A DNA stretch of 21,672 nucleotides from Anaerohalosphaeraceae bacterium (GCA_050309605.1 JBNRMN010000059.1:1-21672), one strand, 5' to 3'. Positions 16,233 through 20,358 are shown, counted from the stretch's first letter. Numbers and translations are program-made. Notes: a model not told the origin generated them from the letters alone.

Positions 16233-16541
16233 ATGAGCAATCAGATAGACAGACAAATGGTTGAGCGGGTGGCGCTGCTCTCGCGGCTGGAGCTGAGCGA
16301 ATCGGAAATCGCGCAGTTCAGCACACAACTCAGCGCCATTGTAGATTACATCGAAAAAATCAACACACTGGACACCGACCGGGTCGAACCGCTGGCGCAT
16401 TGCCTGCCGGTTCACAATGTGCTTCGTGAGGATGAGCCGCTGTCGTCGCTGAGCAATGAGGCGGCTTTGGCCAACGCGCCCGATCAGGTGGACGGCTATT
16501 TCAAAGTCCCCAAGATTCTTGACGACAATTCCGGCGCGTAA
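16233..16541 (+). CDS. gatC: Asp-tRNA(Asn)/Glu-tRNA(Gln) amidotransferase subunit C
   Basis: VERVALLSRLEL...IVDYIEKI..LDT..VEP...NVLRED...ALANAP...GYFKVPKI. Confidence 0.96.
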   Translation: MSNQIDRQMVERVALLSRLELSESEIAQFSTQLSAIVDYIEKINTLDTDRVEPLAHCLPVHNVLREDEPLSSLSNEAALANAPDQVDGYFKVPKILDDNSGA

Positions 16542-16577
16542 ATTAAGATAAAGGGCAAAAGGGAAAAGGTAAAATCA

Positions 16578-18095
16578 ATGAGTGAACTGCTGACTGCTCT
16601 TGAGCTTCGGGATGCGATTGCCGCCAAAACACTATCCAGCACAGAGGCGGTTCGGGATTGCCTTGGCCGTATCGAACAATACGACCCGACCCTTGGGGCG
16701 TATCTTTCGACATTTACCGAAAAGGCAATGCAGGACGCCGACGCGGTGGATCGGAAAATAGCCGCCGGTCGGCTTGCCGGGCCGCTGGCGGGCGTGCCGA
16801 TTGCGGTCAAAGACAATATGTGCACGACCTTCGGCATGACGACCTGCGGCTCGAACATTCTAAAACGCTTTGCCGCTCCGTTCAACGCCCATGTCATTGA
16901 ACGTCTGCTGGCCGCCGACGCGGTGATTATCGGCAAAACCAACCTCGATGAGTTTGCCATGGGGTCCAGTACGGAAAACTCGGCCCTGAGAAAAACGGTC
17001 AACCCCTGGGATCTTTCGCGCGTACCCGGCGGCAGCAGCGGCGGTTCGGCAGCGGCGGTCGCTGCCGGTTTGTGCGCCGCGGCGCTGGGCTCTGATACCG
17101 GCGGCTCGATTCGTCAGCCCGCCTCTTTTTGCGGCGTAACGGGGTTAAAGCCCACCTATGGACGTGTGTCCCGATACGGCCTGGTGGCCTACGGCTCCAG
17201 CCTCGACCAGATTGGGCCGCTGACCCGCAATGCCGCCGATGCCGCGCTGCTGATGAATATCATCGCCGGACACGACCCCCGCGACAGCACCAGCGTCAGC
17301 GACGCCCTGGCAAAAAAGCCCGACTATCTGGCCGAGCTGAACCAGCCGATAAACGGACTCAAAATCGCCGTCGTTCCGGAATTGAACGCCGGCGCCGAAC
17401 CGCGCATCCGAACGGCGATTGAGGACGCATTGAAGGTGTATCAATCGCTGGGGGCGGAACAGATTGAAATCACGATGCCGCATTTTGATTACGCCATCGC
17501 CGCCTATTATGTCATCGCCACCGCCGAGGCGTCCAGCAATCTGGCGCGATTTGACGGCGTACACTACGGCCATCGCAGCGCCGAGGCCGGCGACTACATC
17601 GAGGTCTATTCCAAATCCCGCGACGAAGGTTTCGGCCCGGAGGTCAAACGCCGCATTATGCTCGGCACGTTCGCCCTGTCCAGCGGATACTATGACGCCT
17701 ACTATTTGAAAGCCCTGAAGGTGCGCAATCTGATTCGTCAGGATTTCGTCAAGGCATTTGAAAAAGCCGACTGCCTGATGTTGCCGGTCAGCCCGACGAC
17801 CGCCTTCAAAATCGGCGAAAAAACCGACGACCCGCTCCAGATGTACCTGGCTGATGTCTATACCATCGCCGTGAATCTGGCGGGGCTGCCCGGGTTGAGC
17901 GTTCCCTGCGGTGTTGACGAAAACAGTTTGCCCATCGGCCTGCAAATCATCACCGATGCCTTTACCGAAGATAAACTGCTGCGGATCGGACAGATGTATC
18001 AGAACGCCACCGACTGGCACAAACGGAAACCTTCTTTTTTTTTTCCACAGAGGACACAGAGAACACAAAGAGATAAAAAATGGCGGATGAACTGA
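16578..18095 (+). CDS. gatA: Asp-tRNA(Asn)/Glu-tRNA(Gln) amidotransferase subunit A (C-terminus extended through a repeat)
   Basis: Amidase signature GKTNLDEFAMGSSTE, PGGSSGGSAAAVAA, GSDTGGSIRQPA; GatA-specific SSNLARFDG and EVKRRIMLGTFALSSGYYDAYY. Confidence 0.98.
   Translation: MSELLTALELRDAIAAKTLSSTEAVRDCLGRIEQYDPTLGAYLSTFTEKAMQDADAVDRKIAAGRLAGPLAGVPIAVKDNMCTTFGMTTCGSNILKRFAAPFNAHVIERLLAADAVIIGKTNLDEFAMGSSTENSALRKTVNPWDLSRVPGGSSGGSAAAVAAGLCAAALGSDTGGSIRQPASFCGVTGLKPTYGRVSRYGLVAYGSSLDQIGPLTRNAADAALLMNIIAGHDPRDSTSVSDALAKKPDYLAELNQPINGLKIAVVPELNAGAEPRIRTAIEDALKVYQSLGAEQIEITMPHFDYAIAAYYVIATAEASSNLARFDGVHYGHRSAEAGDYIEVYSKSRDEGFGPEVKRRIMLGTFALSSGYYDAYYLKALKVRNLIRQDFVKAFEKADCLMLPVSPTTAFKIGEKTDDPLQMYLADVYTIAVNLAGLPGLSVPCGVDENSLPIGLQIITDAFTEDKLLRIGQMYQNATDWHKRKPSFFFPQRTQRTQRDKKWRMN
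18045..18071 (+). repeat. 9-nt periodic repeat array R1 (CCACAGAGG ACACAGAGA ACACAAAGA)
   Basis: Read directly; preceded by a T10 run at 18035-18044. Confidence 0.9.
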
Positions 18096-18445
18096 CAGAG
18101 CGAATCATCGGAGCGGCCATTGAAGTCCACAAGGAATTGGGGCCGGGATTGCTGGAATCCATCTACGAAGAGGCGCTCTGTCACGAATTTCAGTTGCAGA
18201 ATATTCTGCACCAACGACAAGTACCCGTTGATATCATTTATAAGGGACGGGAAATCAAGGGATTGAAAATCGACCTTCTTGTCGAGAATGAAGTTGTTGT
18301 AGAGTTAAAAGCCGTCAAAATGCCAACCGCCGTTGCGCTGTCGCAAACGATTTCATACTTGAAAGCGACAAAACTCAAACGCGGCCTAATTATAAATTTC
18401 GGCGAATCTCTTTTAAGAAATGGCATCAAACGGGTGTCTGTGTAA
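18080..18445 (+). CDS. GxxExxY protein (PD-(D/E)xK nuclease superfamily)
   Basis: IIGAAIEVHKELGPGLLESIYEEAL (GLLESIY = GxxExxY), IDLLVENEVVVELKAV, Q..SYLK....RGLIINFG. Confidence 0.95.
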   Translation: MADELTERIIGAAIEVHKELGPGLLESIYEEALCHEFQLQNILHQRQVPVDIIYKGREIKGLKIDLLVENEVVVELKAVKMPTAVALSQTISYLKATKLKRGLIINFGESLLRNGIKRVSV

Positions 18446-18455
18446 TTTTAGTTTC

Positions 18456-18474
18456 GCCACAGAGAACACAGAGA
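18456..18474 (+). repeat. Repeat array R2 (GCCACAGAGA ACACAGAGA), same orientation as R1
   Basis: Starts 11 nt after the GxxExxY stop; preceded by TTTC. Confidence 0.9.
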
Positions 18475-18521
18475 TTAAACTGAATACATAGAAAAATACT
18501 GTAAAAACAAGGAAAACTGAT

Positions 18522-18823
18522 ATGCCACTTAATGATTTTTTGTTGTTTTTCTGCCTTTGATTGCTGCTGGACTGAGCGCCATTTTGACATATTGGTTTGG
18601 GATAAAATCAAAAGAAAAAAAATCAATGCTCAAGTTAATGGAAGAAAGATACTCTACTCTCTTGATGGTATTGCAGGGTTTTGTCAGCGAAACCGCCAAT
18701 AGCAACATTAAGAAAGAGTTCTTTGAAGAACAATATCGTTCTTTCCATGAGAAAAGATATGCTGGGAAAAACGAATCTATCATGTAAAGTTTTTTTAACA
18801 CCGATGTAAGACAAGACAAATAA
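18522..18823 (+). pseudogene. Frameshifted small single-TM hypothetical gene filling the R2-R3 interval
   Basis: AAGGA plus ATG 18522 reads MPLNDFLLFFCL*. One extra T in the T6 run (18536-18541) joins it to ORF 18557-18787, giving MPLNDFFVVFLPLIAAGLSAILTYWFGIK... with a clean TM helix. Further frame breaks lie near 18745-18800; TAA 18821-18823 abuts R3. Confidence 0.6.
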
Positions 18824-18824
18824 T

Positions 18825-18852
18825 TCTCTGTGGCCTCTGTGACCTCTGTGGC
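18825..18852 (-). repeat. Repeat array R3, inverted relative to R1/R2 (TCTCTGTGG CCTCTGTGA CCTCTGTGG C)
   Basis: Read directly; followed by A6. A partial extra copy CTGTGGCAAA lies at 18869-18878. Confidence 0.9.
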
Positions 18853-18894
18853 AAAAAATAGACCCGCCCTGTGGCAAATAAAGGAACCCTAAGA

Positions 18895-20358
18895 ATGGAT
18901 TTAGAGTATAAGATTATTGTGGGATTGGAGATTCACGTTCAACTGGCCACGCGGACGAAAATGTTCTGCGGCTGCGAGTTGGGATTCGGCCGGCCGCCCA
19001 ACACACGGGTTTGTCCGGTGTGTCTTGGACTGCCCGGATCGCTGCCGGTCATGAACAAAGCGGCCGTCGAGTCGGCCATTTTGACCGGATTGGCACTGAA
19101 TTGTACCATTCCGCGCTTGACCAAATGGGATCGCAAGAGCTACTACTATCCCGATCTGCCGAAAAATTACCAAATCAGCCAATACGATTTGCCGCTGGCC
19201 GAGCACGGCTATATTGAAATCCCGCTGGAAGACGGATCGACCAAAAAGATTCGCATCCGTCGCGCTCACCTCGAAGAAGACGCCGGCAAAAACACCCACA
19301 CCCTGGGCAATTTCTCGGCGGTGGATCTGAATCGGGCCGGCACGCCGCTGCTGGAAATCGTTACCGAACCGGATATGAACAGCCCGACCGAAGTGCGGCT
19401 GCTGGCCCAGGAGCTGCAGCGCATCGTCCGCTTTCTGGGTGTCTCGGAGGCGGATATGCAGAAAGGCCATATGCGGTTTGAGCCGAATATCAATCTGCAT
19501 ATCACCCGAAACGGCCAAGTCTTCAAAACGCCCATTACCGAAGTCAAGAACCTCAACAGTTTTCGGGCGCTGGAACGCAGCATCGCCTATGAGGTCAATC
19601 GCCAGTTGGATGAATTCCTGACCAGCGGAAAGACGATGCAAGTCGGCAACAAAAGCACCTTCGGCTGGGACGATGTCAATCAAATCACGGTTTTGCAGCG
19701 GGAAAAAGAAGAGGCACACGATTATCGGTATTTTCCCGACCCCGATTTGGTTCCGGTGGTGATTTCGGACGACTGGCTTGATCGCATCAGATCGCGGATG
19801 GGGGAGCTGCCGCTGGCGATGCAGAAACGCTTCGTATCCGAGTACGAATTAAGCGATTACGACGCGCAGGTTCTGACGGCGGAGAAGGCCACGGCGGTTT
19901 TTTTTGACGCGGCTGTACGTTGCGGCGCTGAGCCGAAACGCGTCTGCAATCTGCTGACCCAAACGGGGCTGAAGCTGGCCAAGGAACACCAAACGACGGT
20001 TGATGCGCTCGGCATCAGCCCGGCTCAGGTGGCATCACTGGCCGGAATGGTTGAGGCCGGCGATGTCAGCGCCACTTCGGCCGCGGTGATTTTTGAAGCC
20101 ATGAGGCAAAGCGACGACGACCCAAAACAGATCGCCGAACAGAAAAATCTGCTCCAAAAAAGCGACGCCGGCCAGATCGAAGCGCTCGTCGAACAGGTCA
20201 TCGACGAAAACCCCAAGGCGGTTGCCGATGCGAAAACCAACCCCAAGAAAGCCAAAAAGGCAATGGGATTTCTGATGGGCCAGGTTATCCAGAAAAGCAA
20301 AGGGCAGGCCAATCCGAAAATTGTCGCCGAGGTCCTGAATCAAAAACTGATGAAATAA
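18895..20358 (+). CDS. gatB: Asp-tRNA(Asn)/Glu-tRNA(Gln) amidotransferase subunit B
   Basis: IVGLEIHVQL.T.TKMFC, CPVCLGLPGSLP, RKSYYYPDLPKNYQISQ, HLEEDAGK, DLNRAGTPLLEIVTEP, EVKNLNS, DYRYFPDPDL, GFLMGQV. AAGGA before ATG 18895. Confidence 0.98.
   Translation: MDLEYKIIVGLEIHVQLATRTKMFCGCELGFGRPPNTRVCPVCLGLPGSLPVMNKAAVESAILTGLALNCTIPRLTKWDRKSYYYPDLPKNYQISQYDLPLAEHGYIEIPLEDGSTKKIRIRRAHLEEDAGKNTHTLGNFSAVDLNRAGTPLLEIVTEPDMNSPTEVRLLAQELQRIVRFLGVSEADMQKGHMRFEPNINLHITRNGQVFKTPITEVKNLNSFRALERSIAYEVNRQLDEFLTSGKTMQVGNKSTFGWDDVNQITVLQREKEEAHDYRYFPDPDLVPVVISDDWLDRIRSRMGELPLAMQKRFVSEYELSDYDAQVLTAEKATAVFFDAAVRCGAEPKRVCNLLTQTGLKLAKEHQTTVDALGISPAQVASLAGMVEAGDVSATSAAVIFEAMRQSDDDPKQIAEQKNLLQKSDAGQIEALVEQVIDENPKAVADAKTNPKKAKKAMGFLMGQVIQKSKGQANPKIVAEVLNQKLMK

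Follow-up and report, generated by a model that had tools for sequence, protein, structure and literature searches.

A nuclease-bearing cassette with heptamer arms between gatA and gatB of an Anaerohalosphaeraceae bacterium: a probable mobile insert and its possible reader

Why are gatA and gatB separated by a small nuclease gene lying between inverted arrays of a 7-nt word, and what could have placed it there? The question is raised by a 21,672-nt stretch of DNA from an Anaerohalosphaeraceae bacterium (GCA_050309605.1, JBNRMN010000059.1:1-21672), referred to below in its entirety as the window. An AT-rich segment of approximately 825 bp (positions 18035–18858) is located there at the gatA stop codon and carries a gene of the GxxExxY family together with tandem copies of CACAGAG. 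The original prediction, made from the sequence alone, proposed that the nuclease recognizes the arrays and drives insertion, exchange, or excision of repeat-bounded cassettes in conserved operons. Our analysis indicates that the segment is very probably an inserted and mobile cassette. It is a real member of a large family of "heptamer-armed" cassettes. The explanation that we prefer as a whole, a selfish insert placed between the last sense codon of gatA and its stop codon, with arms that its own nuclease may read, we consider evenly balanced.

The GC content of the insert is 33–47% vs 52–65% in its flanks. CACAGAG occurs nine times in the window vs 1.49 ± 1.24 expected copies (none of 100 shuffled sequences reached nine), and seven of the nine copies fall within 18046–18850. 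Arrays with at least two exact CACAGAG units at a 9-nt period were found only five times in the whole 3.4-Mb genome: three in the gatA–gatB cassette and two around a second cassette on contig C90. On the plus strand, the insert begins with a run of ten T (T10, 18035–18044), the outermost section of the terminal inverted repeat on the left, followed by the left arm R1 (18046–18070) with three forward units, CACAGAG, CACAGAG, and CACAAAG, separated by GA and AA. The last unit of R1 lies 9 nt before the ATG of the GxxExxY gene and is Shine-Dalgarno-like. The gene itself (18080–18445, plus strand) is intact and encodes 121 aa matching PF13366 and TIGR04256. The internal left arm R2 (plus strand), starting 12 nt past the stop codon, has two forward units at 18458–18473; written from 18455, it reads CGCCACAGAG, AA, CACAGAG. 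A second cargo slot (18523–18787, plus strand) and the right arm R3 (18826–18850, minus strand; three inverted CACAGAG units) follow, and the terminus of R3, GC plus a run of six A (A6, 18853–18858), extends the arm to 18858, with A6 pairing with T10. The same order, left arm, GxxExxY gene, left arm, cargo, right arm, was also found in loci L009, L019, L034, L035, and L038. The array layout described in the original prediction, gatA–T10–R1–GxxExxY–R2–cargo–R3–A6, is thus real, and so are the AT-richness of the insert and the variability of the 2-nt spacers (GA, AA, AA, GC, AC) that it pointed out. Its statement that transposase and integrase are missing agrees with our scan of the 11 other large open reading frames (ORFs) of the window, none of which contained such a domain; the search for IntI was confined to the window. 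No Rfam match was obtained within 17900–19000, and neither promoter-like (3 vs 1.6) nor terminator-like sites (4 vs 1.6) exceeded the numbers in shuffled sequences. When the RNA of 18030–18885 was folded computationally, R1 paired with R3 in the minimum-energy structure and again in the centroid (z −4.3).

The gatA gene (16578–18095, plus strand; Amidase PF01425, E 1.6e-155) follows gatC (16233–16541, from the ORF scan) and lacks its native stop codon. Its frame reads T10 and R1 as 18 additional codons (...KPSF FFPQRTQRTQRDKKWRMN*) and stops at a TGA 13 nt within the GxxExxY gene; gatA of relatives terminates at ...KPSF* or similar. Since the segment is AT-rich, the gatA stop is lost, and the corresponding spacers of two congeners, G006 and G001, are 44–45 nt long, we regard 18035–18858 as an insert. 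By-eye alignment of the junctions of this genome (G000), G006, G001, and G005 identifies the TAG at 18859–18861 (plus strand) as the probable ancestral gatA stop, now cut off from gatA by the insert. The flanks of the insert are ...CCTTC on the left and TAGACC... on the right, and the empty-site joint expected for this junction would run from ...CCTTC(T)n straight to TAGACCCGCC. T10 and A6 are components of the cassette's inverted repeat (T10 plus R1 vs R3 plus A6), a design shared by cassettes on contigs C90, C21, and C82, and a T-run plus GCCAC terminus recurs on C90 and in congener G003 (L009). Comparison of the occupied site with the empty sites of G006 and G001 revealed no target-site duplication outside T10 and A6. 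The insert thus shares terminal inverted repeats with inverted-repeat transposons and MITEs, but not their target-site duplication. Downstream, gatB (18895–20358, plus strand; GatB_N and GatB_Yqey matches) starts at ATG 18895, as set by comparison with relatives, with AAAGGA 12 nt upstream. A partial array in front of it, R4 (18867–18875, minus strand; CCCTGTGGC), had been counted among the arms of the insert and has to be removed from them. It is a native spacer motif similar to an arm terminus: the empty spacers of G001 (CCTGTGGCA) and G006 (CCTGCGGCG) hold CCTG(T/C)GGC at the same distance from gatB. In G003, the last right-arm unit occupies the exact position of this motif. From these alignments, we infer that the cassette may have been inserted at, or recombined with, an arm-like native sequence.

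The gatA–gatB junction was surveyed in the best 30 of 39 gatA loci of relatives, 25 of which show both gene ends. Plain spacers of 8–77 nt were present in 14 of these 25 and an array-free spacer of 122 nt in one; nine, including the window, carried a GxxExxY cassette with inverted arms, and one carried a gene-less CACAGAG hairpin. Among all 30 loci, a GxxExxY cassette was located directly after gatA in 10 and other arm-type elements in 3. Together with the GxxExxY genes directly upstream of gatA in G019 and G032 (in G032 between gatC and gatA), this family adjoins gatA in 12 of the 30 examined relatives, 10 times downstream and 2 times upstream. The five loci that do not show both gene ends include G022, G014, G008, and G019. 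In G022, gatA is followed by GxxExxY plus a DUF5677 gene, and in G014 solo arms of about four classes are stacked directly after gatA (L020, 2060–2420). By their proteins, the cassettes at the junction fall into two distant clades (33–41% identity), one with CAC(A/G)GAG units and the other with CACGAAT/CACAGAT. Within the genus, G000 and G003 share the same nuclease with different second genes, G005 has a cassette of the other clade, and G006, G001, and G002 have none; G006 is the closest congener, with a gatA C-terminus 96% identical. The left junctions differ: the cassette of G000 begins ahead of the gatA stop codon, that of G005 immediately behind it, and that of G003 4 nt downstream of it. 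The flanking genes are 69–96% identical across relatives, gatB (69–95%) running parallel to gatA. Junctions that are empty, occupied, or provided with a different second cargo had been anticipated by the original prediction, and this variability was found.

Parts of the insert were detected at ≥99% identity in contigs X10, X13, and X14 from three other studies. Three joints in X15 (18067/18071 to 18826/18835) were considered as excision products and rejected, having 17–23 other letters between the two sides; they are gene-less CACAGAG hairpins from other places. Two further junctions had their own peculiarities. In G008 (L028, 2060–3065), a CACAGAG-armed cassette stands directly after gatA, its TTTAGCCAC terminus provides the gatA stop codon, and its cargo is a 305-aa ORF with a D...ELK motif near the C-terminus. 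In G033 (L013, 2100–2550), the gatA–gatB GxxExxY gene is broken near its 5' end, leaving an open frame of 105 aa; the family match begins at profile position 17, and a duplicated left arm lies upstream.

The connection between arrays and GxxExxY genes extends far beyond this locus. A family search with an alignment of nine proteins in one-genome-per-species data yielded at least 585 confirmed relatives, of which 80 loci from about 19 phyla were kept as a sample, 77 of them with both flanks. In a strict test, an identical 6-mer had to occur in tandem at 7–12 nt upstream and, inverted, downstream of the gene. It was passed by 38 of the 77 GxxExxY loci vs none of 44 control ORFs from those loci, so the enrichment of repeats next to GxxExxY genes expected in the original prediction is present. 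Mismatched pairs of flanks passed in 46 of 385 cases, because many loci share units. When 5-mers were listed, the flanks of nearly all loci showed tandem units. Among full-length copies from 40 relatives, 18 of 62 passed the strict test, and a further 40 had tandem 6-mers on at least one side. The family was nearly absent from phage and viral collections and rare in plasmids: there was no match in 50,697 records of a phage collection, one locus in IMG/VR (single pattern), and seven in 72,556 plasmid records.

Unit sequence and protein clade go together. When 89 proteins were placed on a tree, the class of unit changed 19 times vs 41.3 ± 1.4 in 200 label shuffles (minimum 37), and the clade containing the window's protein (30 rows; Shimodaira–Hasegawa-like approximate likelihood ratio test, SH-aLRT, 99) was almost entirely of the CACAGAG class across at least nine phyla. 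In 25 loci with CACAGAG-type units at period 9, the cores of the two arms agreed at 436 of 462 positions (94%; the filter of at most one mismatch per unit sets a floor of 86%). The 2-nt spacers agreed at 30 of 82 positions (37%) vs 0.33 ± 0.05 with shuffled partners. Conserved cores with free spacers fit the repeated reading of a 7-nt word, since a stem maintained for pairing only would keep its spacers complementary. The arms can still pair, forming 7–9-bp helices with small internal loops. As for compensatory changes in the cores, both arms shared one deviant unit in two cases (L043 and L104), too few to count.

The protein itself gave strong matches to PF13366 (133.8 bits vs a cut-off of 22, residues 4–119, E 4.6e-39) and TIGR04256 (137.7 bits vs 35, E 2e-40). 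In an alignment of 76 sequences (13 of the 89 omitted, L052 for an in-frame stop and the others to shorten the list), G23, E26, D65, E75, K77, Y93, and F107 were invariant, and Y29 was at least 90% conserved. No solved structure matched it by sequence. The AlphaFold2 model (predicted local distance difference test, pLDDT, 94.2; predicted template modeling score, pTM, 0.87) had best fold matches that were all PD-(D/E)xK proteins, Cas4 SSO0001 (Z 7.9), BpuSI (7.7), BglII (7.3), and Hjc (6.5), with no single subfamily favored. The PD-(D/E)xK assignment of the original prediction is reproduced by this model, and the protein is predicted with confidence to have a minimal nuclease fold of this type (alpha-beta-beta-beta-alpha-beta core) with conserved E26, D65, E75, and K77. 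Between G000 and G003, it is 93% identical, with a ratio of nonsynonymous to synonymous substitutions (dN/dS) of 0.037 at dS 1.06; the gene is under strong purifying selection. The low dN/dS, the invariant catalytic residues, and the predicted fold make the protein look functional. A 2012 survey of PD-(D/E)xK proteins (PMC3424549) enters the family, PDDEXK_3, as "Unknown," with multiple transfers.

Array classes and their cognate genes were compared at the level of whole genomes. Among 41 genomes belonging to the order, 32 contained CACAGAGNNCACAGAG and none contained the reversed control; PF13366 was found in 32 of the 41. The nine genomes without PF13366 had 0, 2, 0, 18, 0, 1, 1, 1, and 1 hits. 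This genome had 8, 9, and 3 hits for the classes of its three GxxExxY genes and 1, 1, and 0 for three classes absent beside its genes. G002 (98% complete, no PF13366) had one hit over five classes, and G003 had 52 CATGAAG hits plus a CATGAAG-flanked gene. Across the genomes of the genus, which are related and 76–99% complete, the eight genome-by-class cells with a cognate GxxExxY gene contained 2–52 hits. Of the 22 cells without one, 16 had 0–2 hits and 6 had 5–22 (CACAGAG in G001; CACGAAG in G003; CACAGAG, CATGAAG, and CACGAAG in G005; CACGAAG in G006). The link is real but leaky. Such leakiness is expected if non-autonomous copies outlive their enzyme, and in array-rich genomes without the cognate gene, which are 73–97% complete, the gene may simply be unassembled.

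The remainder of this genome (assembly G000: 3.4 Mb, 97 contigs, 54.5% GC) contains many elements of the same construction. Each of its three PF13366 matches lies between inverted tandem arrays of a different unit: CACAGAG at period 9 (gatA–gatB), CACAGATTTT at period 10 (C21), and CACGAAG/CACGGAG at period 9 (C82, a truncated copy). The second CACAGAG-armed cassette (C90:7620–8232) holds on the minus strand a gene for an HNH endonuclease of 183 aa, whose ATG is 5 nt after the arm, and has T-run plus GCCAC termini as in the gatA–gatB cassette. At C67:167500–170100, small arm-bounded cassettes and solo arms of several unit classes form a cluster. Arms of the classes found at the PF13366 copies enclose a nucleotidyltransferase gene and a HicB/HicA pair there, the HicA of which may be frameshifted; the cluster also includes an ORF resembling a lipoprotein gene and, behind five copies of GTTTTGA, a pilin-like gene. 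Gene-less hairpins of 60–90 bp were found on C33, C52, C1, C63, C66, and C45. Seven matches to PF05635, the four-helix-bundle family of 23S rRNA intervening sequences (IVS), are likewise bracketed by inverted tandem arrays, every gene with a distinct short unit such as GATGGAC, TTAGTTTT, or GTCAGAG/GACAGAG (C33:141372, C96:51323, C33:73334, C33:76035, C3:70101, C33:74289, and C67:162100); two of the seven genes have an in-frame TGA. Two Y1_Tnp (PF01797) matches have flanks with repeats resembling repetitive extragenic palindromic (REP) sequences and no heptamer arrays. The anatomy of the cassette family is a pair of inverted arms, each of 2–4 tandem 7-nt units with 0–3 free bases between them. 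The cassette idea of the original prediction holds as regards structure and turnover; an exclusive link between nuclease and arrays does not, the architecture being shared by PF05635, HNH, HicAB, and nucleotidyltransferase genes.

Several smaller observations concern these elements. An element of ~120 bp is dispersed in both orientations (C1:54100–54220, C52:3460–3590, C33:112920–113030, and C66:27800–27910); a CACGAAG hairpin forms its center, and the conserved flanks are asymmetric, with ...aataatttgactgttttt at one end and tcaatgattcgtgaatcagtc at the other. The Y1_Tnp gene at C63:13043–13384, like those of REP-associated tyrosine transposases (RAYT) or IS200, is preceded by two REP-like repeats of ~50 nt (TTAATCCACGG...CTGCTGCGCAGGCT), and a similar element, GGGCT(A/G)AAGCCCATCCTAC, adjoins the C90 HNH cassette. 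Solo left arms of three to six unit classes in one orientation are stacked in L020 (G014), L202 (G036:C21:5050–5500), L197, and L198 (G030), and these stacks look like the record of repeated hits at one place. In the window, the gatC–gatA spacer (16541–16577) is a purine-rich tandem run (AAAGGGCAAAAGGGAAAAGGTAAAA) resembling the arms of the PF05635 gene at G000:C33:73334–73630, and, judged by this resemblance, it may be a solo arm.

The second cargo slot holds an orphan ORF. This TTG ORF (18557–18787, 76 aa) has a hydrophobic N-terminus and no Pfam match, and a separate short ATG ORF begins at 18523 in another frame. Over 18523–18560, the short ATG ORF (MPLNDFLLFFCL*) and the TTG ORF would give a joint hydrophobic N-terminal helix given the gain or loss of one base in the T-runs, so the gene may be frameshifted at a T-run. 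The sequence of 18523–18560 is identical in the independent contig X10, whose two differences lie elsewhere; hence, a mistake in assembling this one genome does not account for such a frameshift. The only match among 5.8 billion proteins, searched at near lengths, was the ORF's own 53-aa form; the ORF resembled none of the second cargos found in relatives and occurred only once in the genome. Its coding status is doubtful, and the second cargo at this locus looks decayed. In G003, the second gene is an HNH_5-like ORF (E 5.6e-4, under the Pfam cut-off), and the second genes in the closest branch of the window's clade are unrelated to one another (DUF5677, an FRG-domain protein, and an unmatched ORF). 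The exchange of cargo suggested in the original prediction would fit these unrelated second-slot genes beside nucleases of the same clade.

Literature searches, which covered few subscription journals, turned up no report that connects GxxExxY genes with repeat arrays at their flanks. Such arrays do have described relatives: the closest systems are the ORF-bearing 23S rRNA IVS and the hairpins of cyanobacterial short tandemly repeated repetitive (STRR) sequences. The account of the Coxiella burnetii IVS (PMC4990558) describes a selfish insert of 428 nt and unexplained origin with an ORF for an S23p four-helix bundle, a 28-bp stem of terminal inverted repeats, and three tandem heptamers GACAGAT before the ORF, their number varying among strains. 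RNase III cuts the stem at the first repeat, and the inverted repeats are built on the tandem heptamers (PMC4990558). Both elements are small AT-rich inserts in a conserved, highly expressed gene region, with tandem heptamers directly upstream of an ORF of ~120 aa. A terminal inverted-repeat stem with tandem heptamers before the ORF is predicted here as well, R1 and R3 having three units each, and the IVS protein family PF05635 also lies between inverted tandem arrays in this genome. The differences are that our insert is in an mRNA operon (gatA–gatB) and not in the 23S rRNA gene (helix 25 or 45); that its ORF encodes a PD-(D/E)xK protein matching PF13366 only and not an S23p/PF05635 four-helix bundle; and that its heptamers are separated by two unpaired bases, giving an interrupted stem, and are accompanied by a second cargo slot. 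STRR are known from filamentous cyanobacteria; those of Nostoc are 7-bp repeats forming hairpins between hupS and hupL (PMC2670836), for which a role in transcript stability or translational coupling was proposed. On this description, they resemble the cargo-less copies found here (C33, C52, and C63; L027 between gatA and gatB), but the description is of bare repeats that enclose no gene and are not tied to any protein family. Our family sample contains two cyanobacterial GxxExxY loci, L091 and L103.

Similarity to other known systems is more limited. With REP sequences, their REPIN arrangements, and RAYT genes, the cassettes have in common short, dispersed, intergenic palindromic repeats whose copy number follows one repeat-flanked small enzyme gene and non-autonomous copies far exceeding the gene copies (cf. 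PMC3733652). They differ in having a PD-(D/E)xK and not an HUH enzyme and arms of tandem heptamers instead of a single 20–40-bp palindrome; furthermore, the cassettes carry varied cargo, and the cassette itself encodes no Y1 HUH transposase. Integron cassettes with their attC sites are promoter-less, small, varied genes bounded by imperfect inverted repeats of variable sequence and kept architecture, and they form stacked arrays with exchange at one site. In contrast, the window contains no integrase, attI, or Pc, and the arms studied here flank the gene left and right, consist of tandem units, and mark sites scattered over the genome.

How could such a cassette work? In the explanation that we prefer, the arms would be cis-acting sites whose heptamers are read as sequence by a protein co-varying with them, the best candidate being the cassette's own GxxExxY protein, with several copies binding per arm. 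This nuclease is the commonest passenger of the cassettes and a plausible reader of the arms, a claim based on the covariation, the free spacers, and the matching of classes; the chances that it does read the heptamers seem to us equal either way. The protein may then break DNA at or beside arms or arm-like sequences, and host recombination and repair after such breaks would result in gain, loss, stacking, and swapping of cassettes. Cassettes without nuclease, with other cargo or none, would rely on GxxExxY in trans. In the gatCAB transcript, the R1:R3 stem, like that of a 23S rRNA IVS, could be a substrate for RNase III; alternatively, it could mask the ribosome site of the nuclease gene until ribosomes ending the extended gatA open the stem. 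That the GxxExxY protein causes the DNA events is more doubtful, and we lean somewhat against it; the presence of non-nuclease cargos within the same architecture weakens the claim. In its widest form, the explanation states that GxxExxY proteins are sequence-specific enzymes of transposase-free cassettes, each clade cutting its own heptamer (three per arm), mobilizing itself, cargo-swapped derivatives, and gene-less hairpins, and directing insertion by arm-like sequences, which would give rise to the hot spots in gatCAB, with 23S rRNA IVS and STRR as members or relics. We hold this wide form to be about as doubtful.

A number of points weigh against this explanation. Every step of the mechanism is inferred. 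Non-nuclease proteins share the architecture, and the seven PF05635 genes have units of their own, so the nuclease is no general requirement unless it acts in trans on unlike units. Covariation of unit and protein is equally expected from the co-inheritance of one DNA segment. Periods of 8–10 provide no fixed helical phase, and to our knowledge PD-(D/E)xK nucleases are not known for strand transfer. The dS of the gatA segment between G000 and G003 (0.91) is similar to that of the GxxExxY gene (1.06), and this copy of the cassette may therefore be an old one passed on by vertical descent, with no recent movement; if its age equals that of the G000–G003 split, the empty sites of the closer relatives G006 and G002 (gatA dS 0.32 and 0.58) would be losses. 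No assembled contig from public runs joined gatA to gatB without the insert, and no circle was seen. Finally, G006 (83% complete) and G008 (73% complete), in which no PF13366 was found, have 16 CACGAAG and 18 CACAGAG hits, respectively, and 11 of 19 relatives with at least eight CACAGAG array hits lacked a CACAGAG-flanked GxxExxY gene among the fetched copies.

A first alternative is that the arms themselves are the element and GxxExxY is merely its commonest passenger. Host functions acting through structure, such as hairpin or cruciform processing, replication slippage, and RNase III on the RNA, would make, move, and keep the arrays, and small selfish or defense genes (nucleases, toxin–antitoxin, and four-helix-bundle genes) would settle inside. 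This agrees with a single genome whose arms hold PF05635 (seven times), HNH, HicAB, nucleotidyltransferase, or no cargo, with arrays in genomes without detected PF13366, and with solo arms of different classes stacked side by side; enzyme-free hairpins of 7-bp STRR between cyanobacterial operon genes (PMC2670836) would be a parallel. However, structure alone leaves unexplained why the cores are identical and the spacers free, why the unit class tracks the clade of the cargo protein across phyla, and why the three classes of this genome match exactly its three GxxExxY genes. We regard this alternative as unlikely, though a serious competitor.

A second alternative makes GxxExxY a free-standing homing endonuclease that cuts cassette-free junctions such as gatA/gatB, the cassette being spread by repair from an occupied copy, while the arms act at the RNA level only and insulate the host operon as an intervening sequence does. 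Free-standing homing endonuclease genes are small optional nuclease inserts in conserved genes and recur at one site in related genomes. The strong hot spot next to gatA (12 of 30 relatives) fits this picture, flanking genes of 69–96% identity would permit homologous repair between species, the arm-terminus-like motif of the native spacer could be the target, and R1:R3 pairing appears in the predicted RNA fold. Repeat arms, though, are no feature of homing genes. Moreover, the insertion points are not identical among the occupied sites (G000, G005, and G003), one junction is used by two distant protein clades with different units, other GxxExxY copies reside at unrelated places, and neither the arm–protein covariation nor the cargo-less copies are explained. 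We consider homing improbable.

The least probable alternative, an old and now immobile insertion whose hairpin and genes have been co-opted, e.g., for gatA–gatB translational coupling or transcript stability as proposed for STRR, would suit the nearly equal dS of cassette and gatA between G000 and G003, the presence of the insert, at least 99% identical, in contigs that three other studies produced, and a gatA frame that enters R1 and stops inside the nuclease gene, permitting coupling, but the cassette is patchy within the genus (two cassettes of the CACAGAG type that differ in their second cargo, one belonging to the other clade, and three cassette-free sites), its second cargo here looks decayed, and a short plain spacer suffices at 14 of 25 junctions in relatives, which makes the hairpin dispensable.

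The explanation in which GxxExxY proteins read the arms of their own cassettes concerns a very large family without an assigned function, given at least 585 relatives recovered by one degenerate peptide pattern in one-genome-per-species data. If GxxExxY cassettes, IVS stems, and STRR are of one kind, a simple experiment with the protein and arm oligonucleotides could show how all of them move. Spurious peptides of the "TQRTQR / LCGLCD" type and read-through tails, such as the GatA tail of this bacterium, would then be explained, and a whole family of small proteins with differing 7-nt target words would be open to study. Such cassettes would also show a route for colonizing essential operons without breaking them.

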